From NCBI GenBank assembly GCA_003141315.1, contig PLLP01000006.1, positions 86,641 through 150,640 on the forward strand: a DNA stretch of 64,000 nt. The letters are read 5' to 3'. Position numbers and translations under genes: made by a program. This stretch comes from Phycisphaerales bacterium. GTDB taxonomy: Bacteria; Planctomycetota; Phycisphaerae; Sedimentisphaerales; Anaerobacaceae. Each line of letters opens with the position of its first letter. Positions within the stretch are counted from its first letter, which is position 1. The notes beneath the pieces are model-generated. The model worked only from the letters and a program-made list of their open reading frames with translations. It had not been told where the DNA came from and ran no database searches. Shown one piece after another: positions 1 to 14,545 of the stretch.

Positions 1-1121
1 TCCTGCTGGCGGGTTTGCAGGGCTGCGGCAAAACCACCACCGCCGCCAAACTCGGTCTGTATCTTCTCGCAAATGGCAAACGGCCGCTGCTCGTTGCAGA
101 TGACCTGCAGAGACCCGCCGCCATTGAACAATTAAAAATTTTAGGCCAGCAGACAAATATCCCCGTTCATAGCGAAAAGAGCAAAGATGCTGTGCAGGTT
201 GCCAAAAATGCCGTGCGCTTCGCAAAGGACAATGGTTTCGATTGTGTCGTTCTCGACACCGCAGGCCGGCTTCACGTTGACCAAGAGATGATGGCAGAGA
301 TTTCCAACATCGCAAAGGCGGTCAACCCGCACCAGATTTACCTTGTCTGCGATGCGATGACCGGCCAGGACGCCGTCAACAGCGCAAAGGAATTTAACGA
401 ACGTCTCGAACTCGACGGCATTATCCTCACAAAATTGGATGGCGATGCACGCGGCGGAGCGGCGCTGAGCGTAAAGGCCGTCACAGGCAAACCCATAAAG
501 TTTATCGGCGTCGGCGAAAAATTAGACAAGCTCGAAGAATTTCACCCCGACAGGATGGCAGGCAGAATCCTCGGTATGGGCGACGTCGTCACACTCGTAG
601 AAAAAGCACAGGAGCAGTTCGATGCCGAAGAAGCACAGAAAATGCAGACCAAAATGGCAAAGGGCAGCTTCGATTTCGATGACTTCCTAAAACAAATGCA
701 GGCCGTCAAAAAAATGGGCGGTATGAAAGATATGCTCAAGATGATGCCGGGCGTCGGCAGCCAGCTCGACGAAATCGACCTCGACGACAAGAGCATAAAC
801 AGGATGGAAGCAATCGTACATTCGATGACCAAAAAAGAAAGGCAGGACCCGGAACTTATCGATTCATCGAGGCGCCGCCGAATCGCCGCTGGCGCAGGCG
901 CACAGCCCCAGGACGTGGCGGGATTAGTAAAAACCTTTCTTCGCAGCAGGGATATGTTAAAGGCAATGAGCGGCGGAAAACTCGGCGGCCTAAAGGCCCT
1001 CTTTTCCGGCGGACTCAATATGGAAACGCTGTCGTCTGCCATGTCCTCAGGCAGGAAAATTAAACAGAGGTCGCGAAGAAAACAAATTATAAAAAGACGT
1101 GGGAAAATTATACGGCGATGA
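1..1121 (+). CDS. ffh: Signal recognition particle protein Ffh. The 5' end is truncated by the window edge (frame from nt 3).
   Basis: P-loop [26 protein letters not shown] and a Met-rich M domain ([13 protein letters not shown]) followed by a basic tail. The reading frame is open to nt 1. Confidence 0.95.
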
Positions 1122-1432
1122 AAACAACCACTATCGAACAATATCTCGAAAAATTATCCAAATTTGCCAATACCGATTACGGCAGGCTCGTAAGAGAGCA
1201 GTTCGCAGATTCCAAAGGCGACAGCGAGCTGGCGATGCTCGTTGCGCCGAATGCCGCCGAGCTTGCCGAATTTAAAAAGGCCGTTGCGATTATGACGCCT
1301 GATGAAAAGGCCAACGCTGCGCATCTGACCGATGAGCAGGTTCAGAAAATCGCAGCCGACGCGCAGGCGGACCCCGCTAATATCGCGATATTTTTCAACG
1401 GCTTCGCTTTACATTGTAAACGTGTTTCGTAA
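1118..1432 (+). CDS. Hypothetical 104-aa protein, translationally coupled to ffh by an ATGA overlap
   Basis: The ORF start overlaps the ffh stop codon and has no competing ORF. It occupies the whole ffh-rpsP spacer. I recognise no family motif. Confidence 0.5.
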
Positions 1433-1489
1433 TCAGCGATGGTGCGATTACGAATATTAAATATATAAAGTTTTTGAAAGGGTAAAAAA

Positions 1490-1927
1490 ATGTCAGTAAA
1501 ATTAAGATTGGTACGAATGGGCAGGCGGCACAGGCCGTTTTTCAGAATCAACGCCGTTGACGGCCGAACCCCGCGAAACGGCAAAATTCTCGAAACAATC
1601 GGCCACTACGACCCCATCGAAAAAGACAAAAGCAAACAGGTCGTCCTCAATACTGAAAAAGCCAAATCCTGGCTCGAAAAAGGCGCTATACCGACCGCCT
1701 CCGTAGCGGAACTGCTTCTGCGAGCCGGCGTTAAAAATAAATTCGTCAAGGAAATGGTCTCCAGGCGTTCAAAGGCCAGAATTCTTGTAAGGAAAAAAGG
1801 ACTTCCATTTACGAAGGCTGAAAAAGAAGCGCTGAAGAAAAAAGCCGAGGCTGAAAAAGAAGCGTTGAAGAAAAAAGCCGAGGCCGAGAAAAAACCGGCA
1901 GAAGCAAAACCGGAACAAAAAGCTTAA
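1490..1927 (+). CDS. rpsP: 30S ribosomal protein S16 with a Lys/Ala/Glu-rich C-terminal extension
   Basis: N-terminus MSVKLRLVRMGRRHRPFFRINAVDGRTPRNGK is canonical S16. The tail carries a tandem AEKEALKKKAE duplication. Confidence 0.93.
   Translation: MSVKLRLVRMGRRHRPFFRINAVDGRTPRNGKILETIGHYDPIEKDKSKQVVLNTEKAKSWLEKGAIPTASVAELLLRAGVKNKFVKEMVSRRSKARILVRKKGLPFTKAEKEALKKKAEAEKEALKKKAEAEKKPAEAKPEQKA
1817..1882 (+). repeat. Tandem 33-nt duplication (2 copies, 1 mismatch) inside the S16 tail
   Basis: gctgaaaaagaagcgctgaagaaaaaagccgag at 1817-1849 is repeated at 1850-1882 with one c/t difference. Confidence 0.9.
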
Positions 1928-1953
1928 AAATTATTCGTCCAGAATATACTTGA

Positions 1954-1978
1954 CCCCCGGTTTTGCCGGGGGTTTTTG
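1954..1978 (+). terminator. Rho-independent terminator after rpsP
   Basis: Stem cccccgg/ccggggg with loop ttttg, followed by a T5 tract. Confidence 0.6.
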
Positions 1979-2017
1979 TTATTATCAAAATTTATTTTTA
2001 AAATATAATAACACGAT

Positions 2018-2713
2018 ATGAGAATTGATTGTTTAACCTTGTTTCCTGAAATGTTCGATGGGCCTTTGAACCACTCGATAATCAAACGGGCATCTGACGC
2101 CGGCATCGTGCAGATTGCGCTTACGAACATCAGGGATTTCTCCGCCGACAAACATAAAAAAGTCGATGACAAACCTTATGGCGGCGGGCCCGGGCAGGTG
2201 CTGATGTGCCAGCCCGTTTTCGACTGCTTTGAGCACATCGAGAAACTTTCCGGCGATAAAGGCCTGCCTATTCTGCTCACGCCGCAGGGTCAGAAATTCA
2301 GCCAGGCTATGGCTCAGCAATTCAGCCTCGAAAAAAGGCTCATCCTGATTGCCGGCCGATACGAAGGCTTCGACGAGCGGATACGAACCGGCCTGAATGC
2401 CAGGCAGGTCTCCATCGGCGATTACGTCCTCAGCGGAGGCGAGCTCGCTGCGATGGTAATCATCGACGCCGTCGTAAGGCTGCTGGCGGGCGCACTCGGC
2501 GATGAGGACTCCGCAAAAGACGAATCCTTCAGCGAACTGGCCGGCGGTTTTCTCGAATATCCGCAATACACAAGGCCGGAAGTTTTCAGGGATTTGAAGG
2601 TGCCGCAGGTACTTTTAAGCGGCGACCACGCCAAAATCGCCGATTGGCGACGCCTACAGGCCCTCGAACGCACCCAAAAATGGCGGCCCGACCTCCTCGA
2701 AAAACATCAATAA
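2018..2713 (+). CDS. trmD: tRNA (guanine37-N1)-methyltransferase
   Basis: [13 protein letters not shown] start; also [17 protein letters not shown] ([10 protein letters not shown]), [10 protein letters not shown] and HAKIADWRR. Confidence 0.95.
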
Positions 2714-2840
2714 TCCTCAAAAAAAGACTTGTCTTATTTCTTAAAATTGCTATACTGCTTTGCTCGAAAAAAATGGCGTCGATTGACGCCCTTACGAATC
2801 GGCTTACTTAAAATTGTCTAATGCCGCAGGAGTGCGAACA

Positions 2841-3227
2841 GTGAAAACAGATATTATGAAATTAGTTGAGTCCAAAAACCTCAAAAAAGTTATACCGCAT
2901 TTTGAAGTCGGCGATTCCGTCAACGTCCACTGCAAGATCGTCGAAGGCGACAAGGAACGCGTCCAGGTCTTCAGCGGCACCGTCATCGCACGAAGGGGCA
3001 GCGGCATCAGCGAAACCTTCACCGTCCGCAGAATCGTCGCCGGCGAAGGCGTCGAAAGAGTCTTCCAGCTCCACTCGCCGGGCATTGTTGACGTAAAGGC
3101 AACCAGAAGCGGCAAAACCAGAAGGGCCAAACTGTATTACCTGCGGCAAAAGACCGGCAAGGCCGTAAAGCTCGCCCAGAAATACAGCGAACACGCCGCC
3201 GAAAAGACCGCTGCAACCAAGGCCTAA
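2841..3227 (+). CDS. rplS: 50S ribosomal protein L19
   Basis: [36 protein letters not shown] is canonical L19. The GTG at 2841 lies 8 nt after AGGAG (2828-2832) and gives a normal L19 length. The ORF-track start at 2814 is a TTG and is probably too long. Confidence 0.92.
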
Positions 3228-3304
3228 ATCGCAGCAAACCGATAACGATAAAATATTAATCGTTCGCTATTTATCATTTATCGATAATTATTTATCATTA
3301 TTTT

Positions 3305-3694
3305 ATGCTGCTGCTGAAAAAAAGATTATTTTCTGACCCGAAACTGCTTGGCCGCTGGGGCGAAAAACGCTGCGAAAAATTCCTCAAACAAAAAGGCCTG
3401 CATCCTCTCACTCGCAACTTCTCCTGCAAAACCGGCGAGATTGATTTGATTATGGTCGACAGCATCGGCTCAATCGTTTTTGTCGAGGTAAAATGCCGGA
3501 TAAACGAGGACTTCACGCCCGCCGAAAATCTCATCACAACCGAAAAACAGCGAAAATTGTATAACGCCGCCCGATACTTTTTAAGAACCCAAAATATCGA
3601 TAACCGCCCCTACCGCTTCGACATCGTCACAATAGTCCTCGAAAGCAGCGGCTGCGAAAAAATCAACCACTACGAAAACGCATTTGTCCTGTAA
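3305..3694 (+). CDS. yraN: YraN family (UPF0102) endonuclease-like protein
   Basis: GRWGEKRCEKFLKQKG, GEIDLIM, VFVEVKCR and RFDIV motifs. The position after rplS is typical. Confidence 0.85.
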   Translation: MLLLKKRLFSDPKLLGRWGEKRCEKFLKQKGLHPLTRNFSCKTGEIDLIMVDSIGSIVFVEVKCRINEDFTPAENLITTEKQRKLYNAARYFLRTQNIDNRPYRFDIVTIVLESSGCEKINHYENAFVL

Positions 3695-3750
3695 AGAAAC
3701 TTTATTTTTGCCAATCCGCATTTTACAAATCACCAACCACCGATTAAAAT

Positions 3751-4539
3751 TTGCCATCTATGGAATTGATTGATACACATTGCCATTTGACCTTCGAGCA
3801 ATTAGCAGGCAGCGTCGATGCCGTTTTGCAGAGGAGTATCGAGGCCGGCGTGTCGAGCTGGATTACTGTCGGCATTGACCTGAACGAAAATAAAAAGGTC
3901 CTGGCTCTATCTGAAAAATATGCAAACCTGTATGCCGCCGTCGGAATCCACCCGCACGAGGCAGCGAAAACACAGGACGCCGACATGGAAAATTTGAAAC
4001 AATCCGCAAAACATCACAAGGTCGTTGCAATCGGCGAGACGGGCCTCGATTACCATTACGATTTTTCTCCCCCTATCGACCAGGCCCGAATTTTCAAGGC
4101 ACAACTGCAGATTGCCGCCGACCTGAATTTGCCCGTTATCATTCACTCGCGAGAGGCCTTCGACGACACCCTGAAAATTCTAAATGATTATCGAAGCAGC
4201 CTGAAAAAGGTCGTATTCCATTGTTTCAGCTATAGCCCCGAGCAGGCGAAAATTTTACTGGATTACGGCTGCTTTTTATCCTTCACCGGCGTCGTCACCT
4301 TCAAAGGCGCCGAGACTACCCGGCTGTCGGCCAAATCGACGCCGCCCGAAAGATTGATGATTGAAACGGATTGTCCTTATATGACGCCAGCGCCGATGAG
4401 AAAGCAGAAAATCAACGAGCCTGCGTTTCTGGTTCATACCGCAAAATTCATCGCTGAATTGAAGCAAGTTCCCCTCGAAGATTTCGCAAGCGCCGCCGCC
4501 TCCGCCACCCGCTCCTTCTTTAACCTCACCAAAAAATAA
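3751..4539 (+). CDS. tatD: TatD family metal-dependent hydrolase/DNase
   Basis: LIDTHCHL start; also GIHPHEA, AIGETGLDYHY, VIIHSREA, FHCFS and ETDCPYM motifs. Confidence 0.9.
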   Translation: MPSMELIDTHCHLTFEQLAGSVDAVLQRSIEAGVSSWITVGIDLNENKKVLALSEKYANLYAAVGIHPHEAAKTQDADMENLKQSAKHHKVVAIGETGLDYHYDFSPPIDQARIFKAQLQIAADLNLPVIIHSREAFDDTLKILNDYRSSLKKVVFHCFSYSPEQAKILLDYGCFLSFTGVVTFKGAETTRLSAKSTPPERLMIETDCPYMTPAPMRKQKINEPAFLVHTAKFIAELKQVPLEDFASAAASATRSFFNLTKK

Positions 4540-4587
4540 AAATCGCACTCCCCATACGTCGGGATTTGTCAGGTTAAGGAGTATTTA

Positions 4588-6030
4588 TTATACATCATCG
4601 TCTTTAAGATCTGGCTGACCAGGCAGTTTCAAAAATCGGGCATTAAATAGGTCATATCTGCTAGATTGCATCCATACCCCTACGCAGGCTTCCTGCCAAT
4701 GCTGCCAATATTGCCAAAACCTAACACTTATTGCTGACATTTGAGGAAATACAAATTTGATTACACCATCGGAATCACCAAAAAGATTGAGCGTGAGAGA
4801 CCTGAATTCTTCAGGTTTTGCAAGACACCAGTAAGGCAAAACATCAAAAACTAATTGTTCCCGTTTCATCAATGCTTTATTACAATTGGTTGTTTGGCAA
4901 CATACTCTGAACTCAACCATGGAAGCCAATAAATTGGACATCAATAAATTATTAGCCAAGCGTTTCTGGTTTGGGAAAAAACCCTTTATGAGTTCAAATT
5001 CGCTTATTTTTAAAAGAAATTTAAAGGGTTCTTTTATATCAACCTGCAAACCTCCTGGTGGGTAATGAGCAGAACGATTTTGTAACCAACTTACCTCGCC
5101 GTTACGTAACTCGTTCGGCATTTTCAGTATCATCCATTCATCAATCAAATCAAAAAGTTTTAAGCCGACAGCAATTGACATTCCTAACCGACCGACAACA
5201 TAAAGCATGTAATTTCCTATGTTGATTGTCGATATAAAACCACCACCCATTTCATCTTTGAGAACAGCGAGTCTTCTGATAAGCCCAAAAGACTCCTTCC
5301 AGTAATTTTTTTTACCTGTTTCGACTGCAGAAAAAATTGGAATAAATCCGGGAAGGCAAATATTTCCTGCTTCTAAAAGGGTATCTTCCCAATCTTTACC
5401 GCCTTTTTGAGCAGCCATATCCCCTTTATCTTGTTTCCATTTTTTTAATTGCTCTGGAATCGGTTCTGTAACTTCATCAATTAGTTTTCGCCATGCGATT
5501 AGGTCGTCTTGACGAATTATATCAAGGCATTGCTCCCTTAGTCCGTATTTGCCCTTGTCTTGAAAAACGGACAAAGTGTTGGGTAACTCCTTTTCACTGC
5601 ACACATCAAAAACTTGTGCAACTACTGCATCTATACCATCAGAACTTCTTGCCGCCAATTTACTTGCTAATATAGGGGAGAATTTCCCGACTTCTTCTGC
5701 TTCAACCTCATGCCACACAGGAAGAATGACTTTTTTGCCTACATTATTTTGTCGTGCAACTAAGGCGTCAAGTTCAGTTTTTGGCCATTCTTTTTTAAAA
5801 AATGATTTGCTTAATATAACCACGCCATATCTACTGTTTGCCAAACCATAGTCAATCTTTTCACGCAAATTATCTCCCAGTTTTAATTCAAATCCGTCAT
5901 ACCAAACCTTAAGATTAGAATCTCTAAGTTTCCCCACCAATGGTTCTACAAAAGACTTTTTATCTTCAGATGCATGGCAAATAAAAACGTCATATTCCAC
6001 TTTAAAATTCCCTAAATATTTGTTTTTCAT
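4588..6030 (-). CDS. TIR-domain protein: N-terminal TIR of about 140 aa fused to an unassigned Trp-rich C-terminal domain of about 330 aa
   Basis: YDVFICHASEDKKSFVEPLVGKLRDSNLKVWYD...VVILSKSFFKKEWPKTELDAL matches the bacterial TIR pattern, including the conserved Glu in WPKTEL. The gene is visibly AT-richer than tatD and comM. Confidence 0.85.
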   Translation of the reverse strand: MKNKYLGNFKVEYDVFICHASEDKKSFVEPLVGKLRDSNLKVWYDGFELKLGDNLREKIDYGLANSRYGVVILSKSFFKKEWPKTELDALVARQNNVGKKVILPVWHEVEAEEVGKFSPILASKLAARSSDGIDAVVAQVFDVCSEKELPNTLSVFQDKGKYGLREQCLDIIRQDDLIAWRKLIDEVTEPIPEQLKKWKQDKGDMAAQKGGKDWEDTLLEAGNICLPGFIPIFSAVETGKKNYWKESFGLIRRLAVLKDEMGGGFISTINIGNYMLYVVGRLGMSIAVGLKLFDLIDEWMILKMPNELRNGEVSWLQNRSAHYPPGGLQVDIKEPFKFLLKISEFELIKGFFPNQKRLANNLLMSNLLASMVEFRVCCQTTNCNKALMKREQLVFDVLPYWCLAKPEEFRSLTLNLFGDSDGVIKFVFPQMSAISVRFWQYWQHWQEACVGVWMQSSRYDLFNARFLKLPGQPDLKDDDV

Positions 6031-6267
6031 TAAGAACTTGAATTTTTCCGCCTTATTCCCAAAAGATATATTTCTATGGTATTTTACATCCTAAATTCTT
6101 ATAAGACAAGCGGTTTGGAACGCATTTTCGTAATTTATTATTGAATCCTGTCAATCCTGCTATCCTGTCTTAAAAATGATTAACGGCAAATGATAACTGA
6201 TAAATTCTTCTCTCTGTGTCCTCGGTGACCTCTGTGGTGAAATGAACAAGTTCCGCGTGCAGCGAGT

Positions 6268-7794
6268 TCACAGTTTTCTGTCGAGCCTGCGGTAGCCTAT
6301 GGCCTCTGCGATGTGTTCAGACCGGATTTCTGCAGAGCCGGCGAGGTCTGCGATTGTGCGGGCAACCTTGCAGATTTTATCGTGCGCCCGGGCAGACAAG
6401 CCGAACTCCGTCATCGCCTGCTTCAAAAGCATCTCGGAATGTAAATCGAGCTTGCAGTATTTTTCGACTTGTTTATGCGACAATCGCGAATTGGTAATCA
6501 CCTTGCCATCAAAACGATTGGCCTGAAGCCCCCTTGCCCGAACAACATCCATCCTGATAGTCTGCGAATCTGTCTGCGCCGCCTTCGAGCGAAGCTTGCT
6601 GAAACTGACCGCCGGCACTTCGATATGGATATCGATTCTATCGACCAGCGGGCCGGAAATTTTCGACATATAACGTTCGATTTGGCCGGGCGTGCATTTG
6701 CACCGCCTCGTTTCCGAGCCGAAAAAACCGCACGGGCAGGGATTGCACGACGCAACGAGCAGAAAATTCGCAAAGTATTTTATGCTGCGTTTCGCCCGCG
6801 ATATGGTGACGGTGCCTTCTTCGAGGGGCTGGCGAATCATTTCGAGGACGTGCCGCGGAAATTCGGTAAGCTCATCGAGAAATAAAATGCCGTGATGCGC
6901 CAGCGAAAGTTCACCGGGCCTGGCGTTTGTGCCGCCGCCGATAAGAGCCGGCCCGCTGGCGGTATGATGAGGCGCTCGCACAGGCCTGGTCGCCAGCAAT
7001 GCCTTGCCTTTGCCGAGCAGGCCTACCGATGAATAAATCCGCGTAGTTTCGAGAGATTCCGCCAGTGTAAGCGGCGGCAAAATCGTCGCGAGCCTCTGGG
7101 CAAGCATAGTCTTGCCTGCGCCGGGCGGGCCAATCATCAGGATATTATGCCCGCCGGCAGCCGACACGATTAAAGCACGCTTTACACTTTCCTGACCTTT
7201 AACATCCGAAAAATCAACGTCATACTGGCTTTCAATATCGAATATTTTTTCGATGTCAATGCCGGCTGGTTCAATGGGCAATTGCCCGGACAAAAAGCCC
7301 GTCGCCTGCGCTAATGAACCGACGCCGAAGACCTCCAAATCCTGCACGACAGCAGCCTCGGCGGCATTATCCAGCGGCACAATGATTCCCCTGAAATTAT
7401 TCGCCTTTGCGGTCATCGCCATACTCAAAACGCCGTTGACCGGCCTGACCCTGCCATCGAGGGCAAGCTCGCCGACGATTGCGTAATCTCTGGCAATTGA
7501 ACTTGCAAACGCACCGCTGCCGATTAGCATGCCGAGCGCAATCGGCAAATCGAACGCGGGCCCTTCCTTTTTTGTGTCCGCAGGCGCAAGGTTCACCAGC
7601 GATTGAGTCTTCGGGTATTTGTAGCCGCTGTTGATTATCGCGCTTCGGACTCTTTCGGTGCTTTCCTTTACGGCGGCGTCCGGCAGGCCGACGATAAGCG
7701 TTTTTTCAAAACCGCCGCGAGCGACATCCACTTCGACCTCGCAGATTATCCCCTCAATCCCTTCGAGTGCCACGCTATGCAGTCTCGCCAGCAT
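6268..7794 (-). CDS. comM: YifB/ComM family Mg-chelatase-like AAA+ ATPase
   Basis: N-terminal Lon-protease-like domain; Walker A GPPGAGKT; GILFLDEL Walker B; PCPCGF zinc motif; C-terminal Mg-chelatase domain. Confidence 0.93.
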   Translation of the reverse strand: MLARLHSVALEGIEGIICEVEVDVARGGFEKTLIVGLPDAAVKESTERVRSAIINSGYKYPKTQSLVNLAPADTKKEGPAFDLPIALGMLIGSGAFASSIARDYAIVGELALDGRVRPVNGVLSMAMTAKANNFRGIIVPLDNAAEAAVVQDLEVFGVGSLAQATGFLSGQLPIEPAGIDIEKIFDIESQYDVDFSDVKGQESVKRALIVSAAGGHNILMIGPPGAGKTMLAQRLATILPPLTLAESLETTRIYSSVGLLGKGKALLATRPVRAPHHTASGPALIGGGTNARPGELSLAHHGILFLDELTEFPRHVLEMIRQPLEEGTVTISRAKRSIKYFANFLLVASCNPCPCGFFGSETRRCKCTPGQIERYMSKISGPLVDRIDIHIEVPAVSFSKLRSKAAQTDSQTIRMDVVRARGLQANRFDGKVITNSRLSHKQVEKYCKLDLHSEMLLKQAMTEFGLSARAHDKICKVARTIADLAGSAEIRSEHIAEAIGYRRLDRKL

Positions 7795-7937
7795 ATTTTG
7801 TTCTCCGTTCCGACTTACAGTCCGCCGAGGCGGAACCGAATGAGCTTATCGAAGCCCGATTTGAAAGGGATTATTCTAATGGCTGGCTGTATCTATCTGC
7901 AAGGAATTTTGGCTTAAATTTAGATGGAACGAAAAAA

Positions 7938-8690
7938 TTAGCCACAGATTGCACTGATTAACACTGATTCTTCTTATAACTAAATACTGAATACTAAATA
8001 CTGAAGACTAATTTTAACCACAGATTAACACAGATTTTCACTGATTATTTTTTAAAAAATTAATCGAAAAATTTGAAAAATGGGGGATTTTTTGGAAATT
8101 TTTTAGAATTTTTTGGGATGAATATTTGTTTTTAGCTTAAAAATGAAGATGAGGGGTCGATATAATCGTTAAATTTTATGTATCTTACCCAGATTAAGCA
8201 CAAAATGACACCAGTTTTGGTCAGATTTGGGTCACTTTCGAGCACTTTCGGGTCAATTTCGGGTAGTTTCAGGGTTAAATCGAGTGGTTTTTGGGTAGTT
8301 TTTGATGGCAAATTTTGATGTTAAGATTGGAGATTTTGTTGTGAACAAATAGGCAATACAGGCAGGATGGACAAATAGGCGGGATTGTTTCACCACGAAG
8401 AAATTAGCCACAGAGGACATCCGCCTAGGCGGACCTTCGGCGCACAGAGCAAAAAAATTATTTAACCACTGATTAACGCGGATTGACACGGATTTTTTAG
8501 CCACAGAGGACATCCGCCTAGGCGGACCTTCGGCGCACAGAGGGTTTTTTGCTGACTTGGGTGTATTCGTAAAAAATTGCTTTTTTAAGCGAGCTTAAAC
8601 AGCAATTTTTCACTCGTACACGAAAGCTGTTCGCTTTCAATTCAAATTACAAGTCAGCAAAAGAAGTTTTTAACCACGGATGCTGAATAA
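7938..8690. repeat. Cluster of short repeat modules of the TTA(A/G)CCAC(A/T/G)GA type, including two perfect 46-bp direct repeats
   Basis: Modules start at about 7938, 8014, 8404, 8462, 8497 and 8669. ttagccacagaggacatccgcctaggcggaccttcggcgcacagag occurs identically at 8404-8449 and 8497-8542. A related inverted module lies at 6211-6241. Confidence 0.8.
8045..8340. other. Phased A/T-tract region with a 10-12 nt period; predicted intrinsically curved DNA
   Basis: gggtcactttc gagcactttc gggtcaatttc gggtagtttc agggttaaatc gagtggttttt gggtagttttt ..., preceded by tgggggattttttggaaattttttagaattttttggg. Confidence 0.55.
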
Positions 8691-8696
8691 AAATGC

Positions 8697-8726
8697 TTGC
8701 TTTTATTTCCAGTTTAACAGTATAAT
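8697..8726 (+). promoter_or_regulatory. Candidate sigma70-type promoter for the TcmP/DUF5131 pair
   Basis: TTGCTT (8697-8702), 18-nt spacer, TATAAT (8721-8726). It lies about 95 nt upstream of the ATG at 8823. Confidence 0.35.
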
Positions 8727-8822
8727 ATTGCCCTAAGGCCGGAAGAGATTCGCACCTTATTCTTCTGGTTCTATTACAGAAGAATTGAAAGTTTAAAAAC
8801 AATTCACTTGAGATGAAAATAT

Positions 8823-9941
8823 ATGGCCAAAGATTTTCATGCTGAGCCGTTTGACAGAGAAACAAAGCTGAAACTCGAGATATTTAGGGGATATATCAGG
8901 GAATGGCTGCCTGTGTTTCTTTCCAAAAGGACATTCAAAGCGATTACTTTATATGACTTTTTTGCTGGTCCCGGCAGGGACATAGAAGGTGAAAAGGGTT
9001 CGCCTCTTATAATAATTGATGAAGTGGAGGCGTATCTTAATAATCCGACAACGCCCAAGGCACAGGGCGTGGAAATCAAACTATATTTCAACGATGACGA
9101 CAAATCAAAGTACATAGTATTAAAAGAGGCGATTGAAAAAGAGGGGATAAAGGGATTTTTCAGTGTCGAGGTAGAAAACAAGGATTTTACTGCGGCCTTT
9201 AATGATAAGTTTTCTGCGATAGGCGCCGCCGATACAGCAAATCTTGTCATTCTCGACCAGAGCGGGATAAAACACATTACTCAGGACATATTCAAAAAAC
9301 TGATGGCCTGCCGTTCGACGGATATTTTGTTCTTTATATCGTCTGCTACGGTAAAGAGATTCGTGGGGGAAAATTGTATAGACCAATACCTGCCAAGTAT
9401 TTCCAAAGAGCAGATCGACAATCTCGATGCGGGTCATATTCATAGGTTTATATGTAATGAGTATTACCGAAAATTAGTGCCGACCGGAAAAGATTATTAT
9501 CTTTCGTCGTTTTCGATTAAGAAGGATTCGAACGTTTATGGGCTTATATTCGGCTCAGGAAGTTTATACGGTCTGGAAAAGTTTCTAAGGGTATGCTGGG
9601 CTATCGACCCAAAGACAGGCGAGGCAAACTATAATATTGATAAGGATGACTTCAGGGACGAAGAAAGCATGTTCAAGGAGCTCAATGTAATTCATAAAAA
9701 AGAAGAGTTCCAAAAAAATCTAACAGCCGAACTTAAGAAAAAGCCTATGACAAATAAAGAGCTTTACCGATATTGCCTTGAGAGCGGTTTTTTGCCGAAA
9801 CATGTAAATGAAATACTGAAGACCTTGCAGAAAAATGGTAAACTTATTGTTTCGCCAGAAGGTTCTAAGGGATTTTATATCGGCTGGGATTACTATAGCG
9901 ACAAGAAGGATAAAACGGTAACCTTAAGAGTGAAAGAATAG
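8823..9941 (+). CDS. Three-Cys-motif partner protein (TcmP-like), with a C-terminal winged-helix-like segment
   Basis: The N-terminal pattern (ETKLKLEIFRGYIREWLPVF, then LYDFFAGPG) matches my recollection of the TcmP family (TIGR04474). It sits immediately upstream of a Gp37/Gp68 gene, the defining context. AT-rich. Confidence 0.55.
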   Translation: MAKDFHAEPFDRETKLKLEIFRGYIREWLPVFLSKRTFKAITLYDFFAGPGRDIEGEKGSPLIIIDEVEAYLNNPTTPKAQGVEIKLYFNDDDKSKYIVLKEAIEKEGIKGFFSVEVENKDFTAAFNDKFSAIGAADTANLVILDQSGIKHITQDIFKKLMACRSTDILFFISSATVKRFVGENCIDQYLPSISKEQIDNLDAGHIHRFICNEYYRKLVPTGKDYYLSSFSIKKDSNVYGLIFGSGSLYGLEKFLRVCWAIDPKTGEANYNIDKDDFRDEESMFKELNVIHKKEEFQKNLTAELKKKPMTNKELYRYCLESGFLPKHVNEILKTLQKNGKLIVSPEGSKGFYIGWDYYSDKKDKTVTLRVKE

Positions 9942-9953
9942 AGGCCCCTTTAT

Positions 9954-10676
9954 ATGGGAAACACTAAAATAGAGTGGACAGAATCAACGTGGAATCCTGT
10001 TACAGGTTGCACAAAAATAAGTACAGGGTGCAAGAACTGCTATGCGGAACGTATGACAATTCGCCTTCACTCTATGGGACAGTATAATTATAGGAATGGT
10101 TTTAAGCCGACTTGTCATCCTCATACGCTTTCTTTGCCACTGAACTGGAAAAAGCCTCAGATGATTTTCGTAAATTCCATGAGCGATCTATTTCATGAGA
10201 AAATACCGGTTGATTTTATTCTCGACGTGTTTGATGTGATGAAAAAAACGCCTCATCACCAGTATCAGGTTCTTACCAAACGGGCGGAGCGACTTGCCTC
10301 GCTTTCAAAGATTCTCCCATGGAGAGAAAATATTTGGATGGGTGTGACTGTTGAGGCGGCTGATTACAAACACAGGATAGATTGTCTTAGACAAACAACC
10401 GCACATATAAAATTTCTATCTTTAGAGCCGTTATTGGGCGATCTTGGCGATTTAAACTTAGATGGCATTGATTGGGTTATTGTTGGTGGCGAGTCGGGAA
10501 CTGGAGCAAGGCCGATTAAACCCGAGTGGGTACGAAATGTACAGCATGAGTGCTGCTACCAAAACGTGGCTTTCTTCTTTAAGCAATGGGGCGGCGTAAA
10601 TAAAAAGAAAAATGGACGATCATTAGACGGACGCACATGGGATGATATGCCTCCTCAAGCACTGGCCTTTAAATGA
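9954..10676 (+). CDS. Phage Gp37/Gp68 family protein (DUF5131)
   Basis: TKIEWTESTWNPVTGCTKISTGCKNCYAERM N-terminus, LTKR, GESG and FFFKQWGG motifs, all typical of PF07505. Starts 12 nt after the preceding gene. Confidence 0.75.
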   Translation: MGNTKIEWTESTWNPVTGCTKISTGCKNCYAERMTIRLHSMGQYNYRNGFKPTCHPHTLSLPLNWKKPQMIFVNSMSDLFHEKIPVDFILDVFDVMKKTPHHQYQVLTKRAERLASLSKILPWRENIWMGVTVEAADYKHRIDCLRQTTAHIKFLSLEPLLGDLGDLNLDGIDWVIVGGESGTGARPIKPEWVRNVQHECCYQNVAFFFKQWGGVNKKKNGRSLDGRTWDDMPPQALAFK

Positions 10677-10767
10677 AGAAGCAACGGAAACTCGAAATTT
10701 GGGGTGATCCTCCACACGAATGGTCCGCTCCGCCTTCGGCGGACCTTCGGCATGGCGGATAAACGAA

Positions 10768-10804
10768 AAAATATACCGTCGCCGTGCCGGCGACGGCTAA
10801 ACAA
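10768..10804. repeat. 37-nt hairpin element (copy 1), 36/37 identical to 15846-15882
   Basis: aaaatataccgtcgccgtGccggcgacggctaaacaa. The 9-bp stem is ccgtcgccg/cggcgacgg. Confidence 0.9.
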
Positions 10805-10928
10805 GACCAGTAACAGCCCGGGAAATGCTGAAAATTGATGTAGAAAGGGGGTTTTTATGGGCGGTTTTGCGGGAAAAGGCGGCAAAACATAAAAATAAAA
10901 AAAAATTAAAAAATATTCAAAAAAAGTG

Positions 10929-10956
10929 TTGCAAAACCAGATTTCCGTGGTATAAT
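10929..10956 (+). promoter_or_regulatory. Near-consensus extended -10 sigma70 promoter with no downstream ORF
   Basis: TTGCAA (10929-10934), 16-nt spacer ending in TGG, TATAAT (10951-10956). Confidence 0.45.
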
Positions 10957-10962
10957 GAAGCA

Positions 10963-11085
10963 TCGAAATAAAGGTCTTTTCTTTTTTTAGTTTTGGTTTC
11001 GTAGAGGCAGCAATACTTTATAAAGCTGTATTCTTCAAAATTAACGGCTGTCTCCGGCCGGGGCAATTAAACCCCGGCTTTTTTA
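10963..11085 (+). ncRNA. Candidate small RNA of about 120 nt, bounded by an orphan promoter and an intrinsic terminator
   Basis: Promoter at 10929-10956. Terminator stem gccgggg/ccccggc (11057-11078) plus T6. No plausible ORF lies in between, and I recognise no RNA family. Confidence 0.3.
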
Positions 11086-11308
11086 TTGCGCATTTTTGCT
11101 ATTCCTACAATAAACCATCAGCCGAAATTTGCTTAAAGAGCGGGTTTTTTGTATAAAAAGGCAACAAACCAGCATACAATGCAGGAAATAAGCTGGAATA
11201 TTGCTGCAATCTGAAAATATTCCAAAAATAATGGAACAGCAGGGCTATTTTGCGCATCTTTAAGGTTGGTTTAAGGGCTCGCGTTCCGAAAGTATTAAGG
11301 ATGGGCAT

Positions 11309-11851
11309 TTGGAACAGGAAAGTGAATTACTAACGGCCCGGCTGGCGGCAGGTGAGCGGGCGGCGGCTGAAGAGCTCGTGAACAAGTACTATGAGAGAAT
11401 TTACCTGTTCTTCAGAAGGATGGGTCATAACCGCCAGACCAGCGAAGACCTAACGCAGGAATGCTTCCTGAAGGTTTGGCAGCATGTAGGCCAGTTGAAA
11501 TACAGCGGGCAGATTGGCAGCTGGTTATACAGAATTGCCGGCAATACTTCAAAATCATATTGGCGAAAGAACCGGCATTACGCGATTTTGGAATGCGATA
11601 TTGAAATACCGGATATAAAGCAGGATGGTTCGAATGCAGTGGAACACGCAGAGCAGCTTTGCAGGGTAAAGAACGCCGTGGCGGGGCTGCCGATGAAATA
11701 CAGGCAGGCTGTTGTGCTGCATTATCTTCAGCAGCTGACGATAATCGAATCGGCTGAGGCGATGGGTATCAGGGAAGGCACTTTCAAAAGCAGATTGAAC
11801 AGGGCGTTAAAGATATTACAGCAGGCTGTAGAAAAACCTGCGGATAGATAA
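11309..11851 (+). CDS. ECF (sigma-24 family) RNA polymerase sigma factor
   Basis: Region 2 (YYERIYLFFRRM...DLTQECFLKVW) and region 4 (YRQAVVLHYLQQLTIIESAEAMGIREGTFKSRLNRA). TTG start. Confidence 0.9.
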   Translation: MEQESELLTARLAAGERAAAEELVNKYYERIYLFFRRMGHNRQTSEDLTQECFLKVWQHVGQLKYSGQIGSWLYRIAGNTSKSYWRKNRHYAILECDIEIPDIKQDGSNAVEHAEQLCRVKNAVAGLPMKYRQAVVLHYLQQLTIIESAEAMGIREGTFKSRLNRALKILQQAVEKPADR

Positions 11852-11895
11852 CGACGAAATTAAAAAAAGTTTGTCAGAAAAATAGAGAGTTTGTT

Positions 11896-12432
11896 ATGGA
11901 AAAGGAAAAATTAGAAAATTTGTTAAGTGAGCTGTCTCAAAGGACAGCGGAACCTGCCAGGCCGGGACTGGCTGATAAAATCAAGGCCCGTATTCCGGAT
12001 AATCCGGCGGGCCATAAAGGCGGTTTCAATACCTTCAGGATTATTATCGATTTAAGGGTTGGCAGATTAGCCGTTGCTGCTGCCATACTCGTCACTTTGT
12101 CTTTGTTCATCGCCTTTTATGGCGGCAAAGGGCGCAGCGGCATCGCCTTTTTCCAGGATACAAAAGACCTTGTTCGGTATCTCTTCCGGGCCGATAAGAA
12201 CGCCCAGTTAGCCCACTTTGCAACAGGTCAATTTCTTCCAGAGCAGAACAGGGAATTTGTATACTATGGTGATTTTGCAAATTCTTCCGACCCTGATACG
12301 CTACTGATGCACTGGAAATTAGATGACGACAAGTACAGGGTGGTCTTCAGCAATTTTCGCTCTGAGGTTGTGACGGGCAACGACCTGATAAAGCTGCAGG
12401 CTAAGATGCTGAAAAAAATGGCTGCTAAATGA
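11896..12432 (+). CDS. Putative single-pass membrane anti-sigma factor
   Basis: Lies directly downstream of the ECF sigma gene. One TM helix (LAVAAAILVTLSLFIAFY) separates a short cytoplasmic N-terminus from an extracytoplasmic domain. Confidence 0.45.
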   Translation: MEKEKLENLLSELSQRTAEPARPGLADKIKARIPDNPAGHKGGFNTFRIIIDLRVGRLAVAAAILVTLSLFIAFYGGKGRSGIAFFQDTKDLVRYLFRADKNAQLAHFATGQFLPEQNREFVYYGDFANSSDPDTLLMHWKLDDDKYRVVFSNFRSEVVTGNDLIKLQAKMLKKMAAK

Positions 12433-12598
12433 TTTTTTGCGGGATTTTAAGGCTGTTTCTCATTGACATTTGAATATGTGTTTGTTAGAATGGGCTGTTT
12501 AGGAAAAATGTAAATACCCCTGTTCATCGGTGGTAATTTAAGTTTGAGTTTGAATTTCAGGTAAATTCTGACAATTTAATAATTAAAGGAGAATAATT

Positions 12599-13414
12599 AT
12601 GAAAAGGAAACACGGTTTTACACTTGTTGAGCTTCTGGTTGTAATAGCTGTAATAGCCCTGTTGATGTCAATCCTTATGCCGGTTTTGAGAAGGGCAAAC
12701 GACCAGGCAAAAAGAATCCTTTGCGCCAACCATATAAAAAACCAACTGATTGCAATGGTGATGTATGCGGATTCCCATAACTATAAGATTCCCGTTGGCG
12801 GCGGCTACTGGCCCTGGGATGTCGAGGCGACTGTGACGAACCAGATGCTGAAGAATATGGGTGTGGACTTGAGTTCATTACCATCAGCCACGGATATACC
12901 GGTAGAATTTTCAGTCAATTTTTATTGCCCTGCTAATGCCCAGCAGAGAAGATTCCGCGATCAAAACTGGAATTACACTGTAAATCTCATCACAGGGGCA
13001 GGCTTTCGTGTTCTCGGCTACGCCTATTTGTGGGCCGCGAACTGGAATGATAAGGGAAATATCACGACTTACCCAATTTACAAACAGGACAAAGGTGCTG
13101 ATAAAACTGACCCGGCTAAAAAATGGGTTACCAGAATGGATATGCCGCAAGCATCAGACGCTGAACTTATTGTGGATGCTACTTTAAGCGATCCGTCGTA
13201 TCCCATTGATAAATATCCCAATGGCAACTTTGCCATAGTAACGTGTGGCGGTAATGGCAATGACAGTACAAGCCACCTGATTGACGATACCAAGCCAGCC
13301 GGCGGTAATATTGGTTTTGCTGATAACCACGTTGAGTGGCGGCCTTTCACCGATATGAATAAAAGGTTCGTAGTCGGCGGCGGAACCGACGGATGCCCTC
13401 GTTGGTGGTGGTAA
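12599..13414 (+). CDS. Prepilin-type N-terminal cleavage/methylation protein of the DUF1559 type (type II secretion pseudopilin-like)
   Basis: KHGFTLVELLVVIAVIALL prepilin signal. C-terminal GGNIGFADNHVEWR resembles the H-X9-DG motif of DUF1559 proteins. Confidence 0.85.
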   Translation: MKRKHGFTLVELLVVIAVIALLMSILMPVLRRANDQAKRILCANHIKNQLIAMVMYADSHNYKIPVGGGYWPWDVEATVTNQMLKNMGVDLSSLPSATDIPVEFSVNFYCPANAQQRRFRDQNWNYTVNLITGAGFRVLGYAYLWAANWNDKGNITTYPIYKQDKGADKTDPAKKWVTRMDMPQASDAELIVDATLSDPSYPIDKYPNGNFAIVTCGGNGNDSTSHLIDDTKPAGGNIGFADNHVEWRPFTDMNKRFVVGGGTDGCPRWWW

Positions 13415-13442
13415 GATAAATCGTTTTTTTTGCTGTGAACAA

Positions 13443-13481
13443 ACAAAACCATATCTCCCAAAGGTATGGTTTTGTTTTTTT
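13443..13481 (+). terminator. Rho-independent terminator
   Basis: 11-bp stem acaaaaccata/tatggttttgt followed by T6. Confidence 0.6.
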
Positions 13482-13573
13482 AAAGGGTTTTCCCCGTTAG
13501 AAGCCACAGGGCTACCCGCAAGTTTGTAAATACCGACACAGACACAATTATAAAACACCGGCTTCTAACGGGA

Positions 13574-14545
13574 TTACAGGTTTTTGTTGAGTTCAATCAT
13601 TTTTGCGGCGGCATCGAGAATGTTTTTGCGTAATGCTTTTGGCGTCAGCACCTGCACCTGGTCGCCGTAGCCTAAAATCCACCAGGTTATCTCGCCGAGA
13701 CCGTCGACGCGAAACTCGACAATAGCGGAACCATCCGGGTTAAATGATACCTTTTGCGTGCTGTGCCACTGCACCTCCGCCACATTGCCCGCCACCTTAG
13801 GCAAAAATCGCAGCTTCACATTATGAATTTTTCCCTCGGGTATCATCGACCATGCCCTTCCGAGGTAATCAGCGGGGTCGAATTTACCGCCGTCAAGAAA
13901 ACATTTATCGAGTGTCTGCAAACTGGTGATTCTGTTGAGTTTGAATGTCCTTAAACTTTTATGCATAAGCGAATGCCCGACCACATACCATGCCCGCTGA
14001 TTATACATTAGATGATACGGGGCAAATTCAAGCTCTATGTTCTCGTTTTCGAAGAGGGAGTGATACTGGATTTTTACCTTGTGGCTGGTTTCGATGGCTT
14101 TCTGGAGCTGACCGAAAATTTTATCGAGGGCGCCTATCGGCGCCTGGGGATTAAGCCGGGCCGAAATACTGTTCAGCGAGCTGTTGCAGTATTGCCTTAT
14201 CCGGACGGGAAGGTTGTTTTCAATTTTCAATGCCGCCAGCAGGGCCGAGTTTTTGTATGGAATCTGCATCTGGCTGCTTACCTTATAGACCAGCAGGAGC
14301 AGGCTTAACGCCTCCTGAAGATTCAAATCTATCGGCGGCAGAAAAAACTGCGGGTCTATGGTGTAGCTGCAGCTTCGGCTATCGTAGCGATACGGGATAC
14401 CTATCAGCTGAAGCTCTTTTAAGTCGCGAAATACGGTTCTTCTGCTTGTGCCGAAGGTCGTTGCCAGCTCGTCTGCGGTGCAGCTCCTGCCGGCCTGCAG
14501 CGTTGTCAATATCTGCACAATCCTGCTTACTCTTGCGCTCTTCAT
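13574..14545 (-). CDS. HTH + WYL domain transcriptional regulator (YafY-like)
   Basis: N-terminal RIVQILTTLQAGRSCTADELATTFGTSRRTVFRDLKEL HTH; central YHLMYNQRAWYVVGH WYL-type core; C-terminal WCX-like region. Confidence 0.85.
   Translation of the reverse strand: MKSARVSRIVQILTTLQAGRSCTADELATTFGTSRRTVFRDLKELQLIGIPYRYDSRSCSYTIDPQFFLPPIDLNLQEALSLLLLVYKVSSQMQIPYKNSALLAALKIENNLPVRIRQYCNSSLNSISARLNPQAPIGALDKIFGQLQKAIETSHKVKIQYHSLFENENIELEFAPYHLMYNQRAWYVVGHSLMHKSLRTFKLNRITSLQTLDKCFLDGGKFDPADYLGRAWSMIPEGKIHNVKLRFLPKVAGNVAEVQWHSTQKVSFNPDGSAIVEFRVDGLGEITWWILGYGDQVQVLTPKALRKNILDAAAKMIELNKNL

Follow-up and report, generated by a model that had tools for sequence, protein, structure and literature searches.

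A TIR protein of a Phycisphaerales bacterium with a new, widely reused C-terminal domain and a possible role as a single-gene antiphage protein

The window analyzed here is a 64,000-nucleotide stretch of a Phycisphaerales bacterium genome (GenBank assembly GCA_003141315.1; contig PLLP01000006.1; positions 86,641 to 150,640 of the forward strand). It contains an AT-rich gene, here designated the TIR-CTD gene, whose product consists of an N-terminal TIR domain and a C-terminal domain (CTD) (Table 1). By sequence, the TIR domain groups with a clade of enzymatically characterized NADases and has an intact catalytic motif, and it is predicted to cleave NAD+. The CTD is a real, conserved, and independently folding module. 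Sequence comparisons indicate that this one C-terminal module is joined to several kinds of enzymatic module, which serve as effectors in antiphage systems, validated or candidate. Defense by a single protein with a NADase of the STIR clan is a known theme, and the effector side of the protein is ordinary; the new part is the CTD superfamily, a widely reused C-terminal module that is new to the databases. The TIR-CTD gene is foreign and accessory and has no conserved partner. On balance, we favor the view that it encodes a single-polypeptide abortive-infection antiphage protein, in which the TIR domain would be the NADase effector and the CTD the sensor controlling TIR clustering.

The TIR domain and the C-terminal domain

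The first-pass annotation, made from the sequence alone, had placed an open reading frame (ORF) at positions 4588 to 6030 of the minus strand. An ORF with exactly these coordinates is present, and its longest reading has 480 codons for amino acids. The true start is probably the GTG at position 6000, which gives a product of 470 aa, because 60 of the 62 aligned homologues have M-E-Y-D-V-F as their N-terminal start, residues 1 to 9 have a predicted local distance difference test (pLDDT) score of <50 in the full-length AlphaFold2 model, and an AGGGA is found upstream of this GTG.

The first ~140 aa had been assigned to a TIR domain with a glutamate, Glu86, at the catalytic position, and both assignments were confirmed. 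The Pfam search proposed in the first-pass annotation was positive: TIR_2 matched residues 15 to 121 (E = 5.7e-21; 75.7 bits versus a cutoff of 28), and the Pfam TIR family also matched (E = 4.4e-12; 46.6 bits versus a cutoff of 21.3). The full-length AlphaFold2 model was built on 62 homologues and has a mean pLDDT of 88.3. In a Foldseek search against the PDB, the top 21 matches (E ≤ 1e-7) were BtTir, TcpB/BtpA, PdTIR, and AbTir. The TIR domain is 45 to 54% identical to these proteins (root mean square deviation, mostly 1.0 to 2.4 Å; E of ~1e-10), and it superposes on the flavodoxin-like fold of the solved TIRs with a target TM-score of 0.84 to 0.94 for most chains. The same TIR proteins were retrieved from the PDB sequences with phmmer (E = 2e-41 to 2e-38).

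The segment KKEW82PKTE86LDALVAR aligns without gaps to KKDWTNYELDGLVAR of AbTir, with W82 corresponding to W204 and E86 to E208, and E86 also aligns gaplessly to the WxxxE glutamate of BtTir. None of the 62 family members deviates at W82, E86, or G52. AbTir, BtTir, and TcpB cleave NAD+ and produce 2' cyclic ADP-ribose (2'cADPR), and self-association of the TIR domains is required for the activity of these enzymes (10.1101/2022.05.07.491051). In AbTir, activity is abolished by E208A, lowered by W204A and T205A, and absent or very low in the BB-loop mutants G174A and S176A (10.1101/2022.05.07.491051). In the BB loop of the TIR-CTD family, G52 is conserved, and position 54 is Asn in the window copy and Ser in 54 of the 62 homologues.

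The TIR domain is followed by a flexible linker, which is rich in indels and the least conserved part of the alignment of the 62 homologues, and by the CTD. When residues 146 to 480 were modeled alone with AlphaFold2 from 25 homologues, the resulting model was confident (pLDDT of 90.8; predicted template modeling score [pTM] of 0.89) and consisted of ~18 helices and one small beta-hairpin. The first-pass annotation had recognized no motif in the C-terminal region and had recommended modeling and fold comparison, and the region indeed combines a confident fold with no known relative. Residues ~150 to 480 had zero matches in Pfam, NCBIfam, and PADLOC, and the CTD had none in PHROGs. The best Foldseek match in the PDB had an E value of 0.26, with TM-scores of 0.2 to 0.3 to generic designed helical repeats, and the best one in BFVD had an E value of 0.49. 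Searching the PDB sequences with the CTD profile gave only noise (E = 0.015 or worse), and no paper describing the CTD was found in a literature search. A known nondefense family was among the things looked for; the CTD maps to no known family or fold, defense related or otherwise.

The region also lacks a transmembrane segment, as had been noted before: no stretch reaches transmembrane-grade hydrophobicity, the best 19-aa Kyte-Doolittle mean being 1.55. The hydrophobic segments of the CTD are a buried Gly/Ala-rich helix at residues 271 to 289 and a second segment at residues 218 to 236. Tryptophan makes up 3.5% of the CTD residues, and the Trp-rich stretch that had been pointed out near the C terminus was found (Table 1). 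The invariant CTD residues in the family include W180, W299, W315, W401, W439, W442, and W445, and a C-terminal LPGEP motif is also invariant in the family alignment.

The gene had been described as a singleton. This is correct in that it has no operon partner, but it is not an orphan: ~65 full-length homologues (37 to 67% identity; 96 to 98% query coverage; 457 to 511 aa) were identified among 5.8 billion proteins. All of them are unannotated, and nearly all are from metagenomes. The CTD is distributed more widely. A profile of the CTD alone, scored with HMMER against 1.84 billion cluster representatives, detected 173 clusters at 50% identity with E ≤ 1e-3, of which 61 had E ≤ 1e-10, and the superfamily thus comprises at least 173 clusters. 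In all of these proteins the CTD is C terminal, with a median of 7 residues after it. The alignment of the family CTD with 95 distant CTDs in hhalign had a probability of 99.9% (E = 8.7e-33; 321 columns), compared with 0.2% for the reversed and column-shuffled controls. The positions conserved throughout the superfamily are D176, W180, W198, P227, G264, F352, E373, P399, W442, and W445; W442 is kept in 88% and W445 in 83% of the 95 distant members. The window protein fits the superfamily signature of D176, W180, W198, F352, E373, W442, and W445 in a helical C-terminal domain of ~300 aa. A scan of genome contigs for the TIR-CTD family yielded one spurious TIR fragment only, and searches for the CTD among plasmids, annotated phages, and IMG/VR contigs gave no match.

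The N-terminal partners of the CTD were counted with Pfam over 100 distant members, in none of which the CTD itself was covered by a Pfam family. TIR_2 was present in 64 of the 100 and SEFIR in 61, these being largely the same proteins. A Ser/Thr kinase domain (Pkinase) was found in 10, a ParA/MinD-like ATPase in two, a CAP12/Pycsar-type TIR in two, and a LexA-type winged helix-turn-helix extension in one. The SEFIR partners match the PADLOC bSEFIR model (E = 7e-66 to 5e-77), the kinase partners match models of the PD-T4-6/mad6 type (E of ~1e-42; 2e-42), and the ParA-like ATPase partner matches PDC-M28B. Different arrangements were also seen in proteins whose CTDs are closely related to that of the window protein (E = 1e-93 to 1e-102): P0126 (655 aa) has an additional N-terminal region of ~170 aa before an AbTir-like TIR domain, and in P0124 and P0166 (656 and 623 aa, respectively) the TIR domain is replaced by a ParA/MinD ATPase of the KGGVGR type. 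The effectors have therefore been swapped even among near relatives. Recurrence behind alternative effector-type N termini is what a portable module with a sensor or regulatory function would be expected to show.

The two domains also differ in how fast they diverge. Mean pairwise identity is 42% for the CTD and 68% for the TIR domain, the latter being the more conserved one in 98.7% of 1,891 pairs. Faster divergence of the CTD and swapped N termini are both patterns seen in sensor domains that are joined to effector domains.

Seven superfamily members of 323 to 354 aa (P0152, P0154, P0160, P0176, P0198, P0216, and P0225) consist of the CTD alone and have no N-terminal enzymatic domain. These could be stand-alone sensors with a separate effector or split or miscalled genes.

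Table 1. Features of the TIR-CTD gene and its surroundings (positions in the window; residue numbers of the encoded protein)
Feature	Position	Strand	Basis or remark
TIR-CTD gene	4588..6030	-	Longest ORF, 480 aa; probable start GTG at 6000, giving 470 aa
TIR domain, residues 13-145, AbTir/BtTir/TcpB/PdTIR clade	5596..5994	-	Pfam, Foldseek PDB, phmmer PDB
BB loop G52-D53-N54-L55	5869..5880	-	Column counts in 62 homologues
W82-P-K-T-E86, WxxxE motif (predicted catalytic)	5773..5787	-	Translation, AbTir alignment; E86 codon at 5773-5775
Interdomain flexible linker, residues 146-163	5542..5595	-	pLDDT <50 at residues 148-160
CTD, residues 164-472 (~310 aa)	4615..5541	-	All-alpha apart from one small beta-hairpin; no match to a known family or fold
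Trp-rich helix RFWQYWQHWQEACVGVWMQ, residues 437-455	4666..4722	-	Translation
AT-rich spacer between comM and the TIR-CTD gene	6031..6267	-	GC 0.363; promoter-like hexamers at 6081-6109 and three CAGGAT(A/T) copies, neither above chance
TcmP and DUF5131 (gp37), PADLOC candidate PDC-M30; context, outside the gene	8823..10676	+	Low-GC insert across comM

Base composition and genomic context

In the window, the TIR-CTD gene is located between a convergent tatD gene and an upstream comM gene, and it is AT richer than both, as had been noticed in the first-pass annotation. Its GC content is 0.376, and its GC content at third codon positions (GC3) is 0.314, compared with GC3 values of 0.60 to 0.65 for trmD, rplS, tatD, and comM (0.60 for tatD and 0.62 for comM). 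Among gene-sized windows of the 64-kb stretch, only 0.5% are as AT rich, and the only other region with ≤40% GC (positions 7601 to 10244) lies across comM.

Two claims about the spacer upstream of the gene held in part. The TTGTCT-17-TAAAAT hexamers that had been proposed as the gene's own promoter exist, at 6109..6081 of the minus strand, but a promoter scan of the region found three sites versus 4.4 expected by chance from shuffled sequence, and because the site count is not above chance, the hexamers are no evidence of a promoter. The spacer had also been called repeat bearing. It contains three short CAGGAT(A/T) copies within GACAGGATAGCAGGATTGACAGGATTC at positions 6150 to 6176 of the minus strand, but a repeat search revealed no significant repeat family. 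An operator-like element at this place is possible; it is too short to be told from chance.

The surroundings of the gene were compared in 11 contexts, namely, the window and 10 homologue loci. At four loci the gene is inserted in the leucine operon: upstream of leuA, between leuA and leuC (two loci), and between leuD and leuB. At two loci it lies within a MutS-MNT-peptidase M48-...-ProS block, and at one locus the neighbors are of unknown function. At other loci, the gene (i) directly follows a BREX system (PglX, PglZ, and BrxL) and PDC-S02, with a type VI retron reverse transcriptase downstream (E = 3.8e-72; locus L012); (ii) adjoins Dcm/Vsr and a PD-T4-1/PDC-S36-like gene (L014); (iii) lies within an integrase-bearing element (L015); or (iv) adjoins a PglX-like methyltransferase and a LmuB/AriA-like ATPase (L016). 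A check of co-location with defense genes had been proposed, and PADLOC defense or candidate genes were found within ~5 kb in 5 of the 11 contexts, the window included; the remaining contexts are single-gene insertions among housekeeping genes.

The possibility that the homologues are core, vertically inherited genes had also been raised. They are instead accessory: they occupy at least seven unrelated locus types, and neither the TIR-CTD gene nor the adjacent tatD was present at 80 loci with comM orthologues (76 to 84% identity). No clean empty site between tatD and comM was found among these 80 loci. In the closest comM relative, L017, an unrelated low-GC gene fills the slot downstream of comM (positions 4906 to 6324, plus strand). 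It has the same position as the TIR-CTD gene and nearly the same length, and it encodes a 472-aa protein with multiple transmembrane segments and an "FADGHV" motif of the C-terminal type. Because of this unrelated gene, the slot downstream of comM is considered variable. No tRNA or Rfam element marking an integration site was detected at positions 1 to 14000 of the window.

No neighbor or partner gene is conserved across the 11 contexts. A conserved downstream partner of ~277 aa was considered and rejected: the sizes coincide in five loci, and only in L015 and L016, which are closely related loci, are the proteins related to each other. These two loci share a block (L015, 2363 to 5264; L016, 5637 to 8534) comprising the TIR-CTD gene, a gene for 278 or 279 aa with a weak match to PADLOC PDC-M15A (E = 1.8e-11), and a gene for 204 aa that is 80% identical between the loci. 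The block could be a subfamily-specific cassette or reflect close synteny.

On the other side of comM, the TcmP and DUF5131 genes (GC of 0.40 and 0.43, respectively) match PADLOC PDC-M30A (E = 1.5e-116) and PDC-M30B (E = 7e-119), and PDC-M41B was also matched; TcmP was identified by NCBIfam TIGR04474 (134 bits versus a cutoff of 53). The pair is regarded as a second inserted cassette flanking comM because of its low GC content and because, in L017, comM and the gene for an ECF sigma factor are 636 bp apart and no TcmP or DUF5131 gene is present. Between comM and TcmP there is ~1 kb (positions 7795 to 8822; GC of 0.37) with no ORF of >86 aa, no tRNA, and no Rfam match, which could be an insertion remnant or a regulatory region.

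In a number of planctomycete-type contigs (L001, L004, L006, and L009 to L011), accessory genes of various kinds split the leuA-leuC-leuD-leuB operon. Besides the TIR-CTD gene, which is found at three different positions, the inserts include genes for 23S_rRNA_IVP four-helix proteins, a PEMT-like gene, DUF1877, and an N6/N4 methyltransferase. The operon thereby resembles an insertion hotspot.

Proposed mechanism and alternative explanations

TIR NADases are active only when their TIR domains self-associate. In the mechanism that we favor, the N-terminal TIR domain would be the NAD+-cleaving effector, of the AbTir/BtTir/TcpB clade, and the helical CTD of ~310 aa, tethered by a flexible linker of ~15 residues, would be the sensor or regulator. 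The resting protein would be inactive. During infection, the CTD would recognize a cue from the phage, most probably one of its multimeric proteins, and this recognition would cluster the TIR domains or release their inhibition. NAD+ would then be hydrolyzed, 2'cADPR possibly being formed as a by-product, and phage replication would no longer be supported by the infected cell. The first-pass annotation had proposed a single-polypeptide sensor-effector immunity protein with a new sensor domain, and the analyses of the TIR domain, the CTD, the genomic context, and the domain fusions all support this proposal. We infer that the protein has an immune role and that the CTD is its sensor. The output would be NAD+ depletion rather than signaling, and activation by clustering is suggested by analogy with SpbK, which is compared below.

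Several observations weigh against this mechanism. The full-length model (pTM of 0.69) leaves it uncertain how the two domains are oriented to each other, and the conserved CTD residues (D176, W180, W198, F352, E373, W442, and W445) could be purely structural. With Asn at position 54, the window copy may be impaired or attenuated, because AbTir S176A, with a change at the equivalent position, is nearly inactive. The four leu-operon loci, the two MutS-ProS loci, and the locus of unknown content contain no recognized defense system, the "PDC" neighbors at other loci are unvalidated PADLOC candidates, and carriage by a mobile element was seen at a single, integrase-bearing locus. Moreover, the 2'cADPR output of this TIR clade would fit signaling with an unlinked effector equally well.

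The last point leads to a signal-generating, ThsB-like TIR protein, in which the CTD would sense infection and the TIR domain would make 2'cADPR or a related signal derived from ADP-ribose, which would activate an effector encoded elsewhere in the genome, NAD+ depletion not being the killing step. The identity of 45 to 54% to 2'cADPR-producing TIRs, the match of PADLOC ThsB1 models to the TIR domain (E = 4e-35), and the correspondence of W82 to AbTir W204, a position informative for cyclase activity, are compatible with it. However, the ThsB model match is confined to the TIR domain, none of the 11 contexts has an adjacent ThsA-like gene (SIR2/SLOG, Macro, or transmembrane effector), and the association of the CTD with kinases and ParA-like ATPases fits a sensor with interchangeable effectors better than a sensor with a signal synthase. 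We regard such a signaling role as unlikely. It is also quite unlikely that the protein is a nonimmune NAD+ consumer, for example, a switch for stress or dormancy, a selfish gene of the addiction type, or an interbacterial or host-directed factor like TcpB/BtpA, with a CTD that regulates or localizes it. TcpB/BtpA, which has been described as an immunosuppressor of animal hosts, is among the closest solved TIRs, but the hosts of the TIR-CTD family are free-living Phycisphaerae/Sedimentisphaerales from sediment and peat metagenomes, and the protein has no transmembrane segment or secretion signal. HicA and HEPN-MNT toxin-antitoxin genes lie nearby in L013, yet the contexts share no conserved antitoxin-like partner. 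About half of the contexts are housekeeping operons (leu and MutS-ProS) with no known defense systems; in 5 of the 11, in contrast, defense or candidate genes are present, and the alternative partners of the CTD match bSEFIR, PD-T4-6-type kinases, and PDC-M28B, which are validated or candidate defense models.

A reversal of roles would make the CTD a toxic effector, for example, a membrane-active or protein-binding one, and the TIR, SEFIR, or kinase domain an oligomerizing adaptor or sensor; it would account for a constant CTD behind varying N-terminal modules and for the hydrophobic segments at residues 271 to 289 and 218 to 236 (best Kyte-Doolittle means of ~1.5). This hydrophobicity is nevertheless below transmembrane grade, and Foldseek revealed no resemblance to pore-forming or other toxin folds. 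In addition, the N-terminal partners (TIR with an intact glutamate, SEFIR, and kinases) are known enzymatic effectors, and the CTD evolves faster than the TIR domain, which is typical of sensors. We consider this reversal very improbable and retain the NADase effector with a sensing CTD.

A broader proposal, which is conceivable and which we put forward tentatively, is that the CTD is the portable phage-sensing module of a new class of compact single-chain immune receptors, gating at least four kinds of effector (a TIR NADase, a SEFIR NADase, a Ser/Thr kinase, and a ParA-like ATPase) in response to one conserved type of phage cue. If so, the Phycisphaerae TIR-CTD family would be one branch of a widespread and environmentally dominant defense superfamily that has been missed by Pfam, PADLOC, NCBIfam, and the PDB. 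SpbK, bSEFIR, and DSR1/2 represent a growing theme of single proteins that deplete NAD+, and for most of them the main question is how infection is sensed. At ~470 aa and encoded by a single gene, the TIR-CTD protein is a small candidate for experiments, and the presence of TIR, SEFIR, kinase, and ParA modules on the same CTD provides a natural domain-swap series for finding the cue that the CTD recognizes. With a CTD profile, defense annotation tools could also detect this family, which is common in metagenomes of sediment and peat but invisible in databases of cultured organisms. If the CTD proves not to be a sensor, a new family of domains, joined to NADase TIRs, has still been defined.

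Comparison with known systems

The TIR domain of the protein resembles those of several known systems, which differ from it in the rest of their architecture. The closest TIRs, those of AbTir, BtTir, TcpB, and PdTIR, are 45 to 54% identical and align without gaps through the WxxxE motif. In those proteins, however, an N-terminal coiled coil precedes a C-terminal TIR domain, whereas here the TIR domain is N terminal and is followed by the CTD; the BB-loop Ser of AbTir is Asn in the window copy. PADLOC PDC-S66, which has the coiled-coil-TIR architecture, matches through its TIR part only (profile positions 146 to 279 of 282). ThsB of Thoeris is likewise a TIR protein thought to sense infection, and its PADLOC match (ThsB1, E = 4e-35) covers the TIR part only. 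Thoeris differs in having a ThsA effector gene; as neither the window nor any of the 10 other contexts has an adjacent one, a Thoeris identity of the TIR-CTD gene was ruled out. Retron-TIR (NCBIfam NF042941) was also rejected, at 96 bits versus an equivalog cutoff of 600 and over the TIR portion only.

bSEFIR is a single-gene defense system described by Millman et al. in 2022 (10.1101/2022.05.11.491447), and SEFIR consists of one protein, the N-terminal domain of which depletes NAD+ (10.1101/2024.02.11.579819). Like the TIR-CTD gene, it is a single gene encoding an N-terminal NAD+-depleting domain of the STIR clan and an uncharacterized C-terminal region, and most of the distant CTD-bearing proteins carry a SEFIR domain matching the PADLOC bSEFIR model. 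The window protein differs in having a TIR domain with no Pfam SEFIR match, the bSEFIR model matching only residues 14 to 80 (E = 9e-4). An identity of the CTD with the C-terminal domain of bSEFIR was suggested by the fact that the SEFIR-CTD proteins match the bSEFIR model past the SEFIR domain. It was rejected: the overlap comprises only the SEFIR tail and the linker, eight CTD-only sequences (the window CTD and the seven stand-alone ones) gave zero PADLOC matches at E ≤ 1, and plasmid SEFIR proteins from Escherichia coli, Enterococcus, and Bacillus match P0151, a SEFIR-CTD protein, over its SEFIR domain only.

DSR1 and DSR2 have an N-terminal NAD+-depleting domain that is activated when the C-terminal part detects a phage component (10.1101/2024.02.11.579819). 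The single-chain logic, with an N-terminal effector and a sensing C-terminal domain, would be the same in the TIR-CTD protein, and the swapping of effectors on a constant sensor is reminiscent of Avs. Unlike DSR1/DSR2 and Avs, the TIR-CTD protein has no SIR2 domain or STAND ATPase and is much smaller (470 to 480 aa), and the fold of its CTD is, according to Foldseek, unrelated to any solved structure.

In SpbK of the Bacillus subtilis element ICEBs1, an 18-residue linker joins a helical domain to a TIR domain; the helical domain docks on the dodecameric phage portal protein YonE, which concentrates the TIR domains and leads to NAD+ cleavage (PMC12847820). The domain order is reversed in the TIR-CTD protein, where the TIR domain is N terminal, and the 94-aa four-helix bundle of SpbK contrasts with a CTD of ~310 aa and a different fold. 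The two TIR domains belong to different clades, because SpbK was not among the PDB sequence matches to the TIR domain at E ≤ 1e-5. For the CTD, there was no PDB fold match below an E value of 0.26 and no PDB sequence match, which, assuming that the SpbK entries are in the PDB copy searched, also covers the SpbK four-helix bundle. In both cases, one polypeptide with no partner gene carries a TIR domain that a short flexible linker connects to a helical non-TIR domain, and SpbK is the closest experimentally established mechanistic template, which we have adopted for the TIR-CTD protein.

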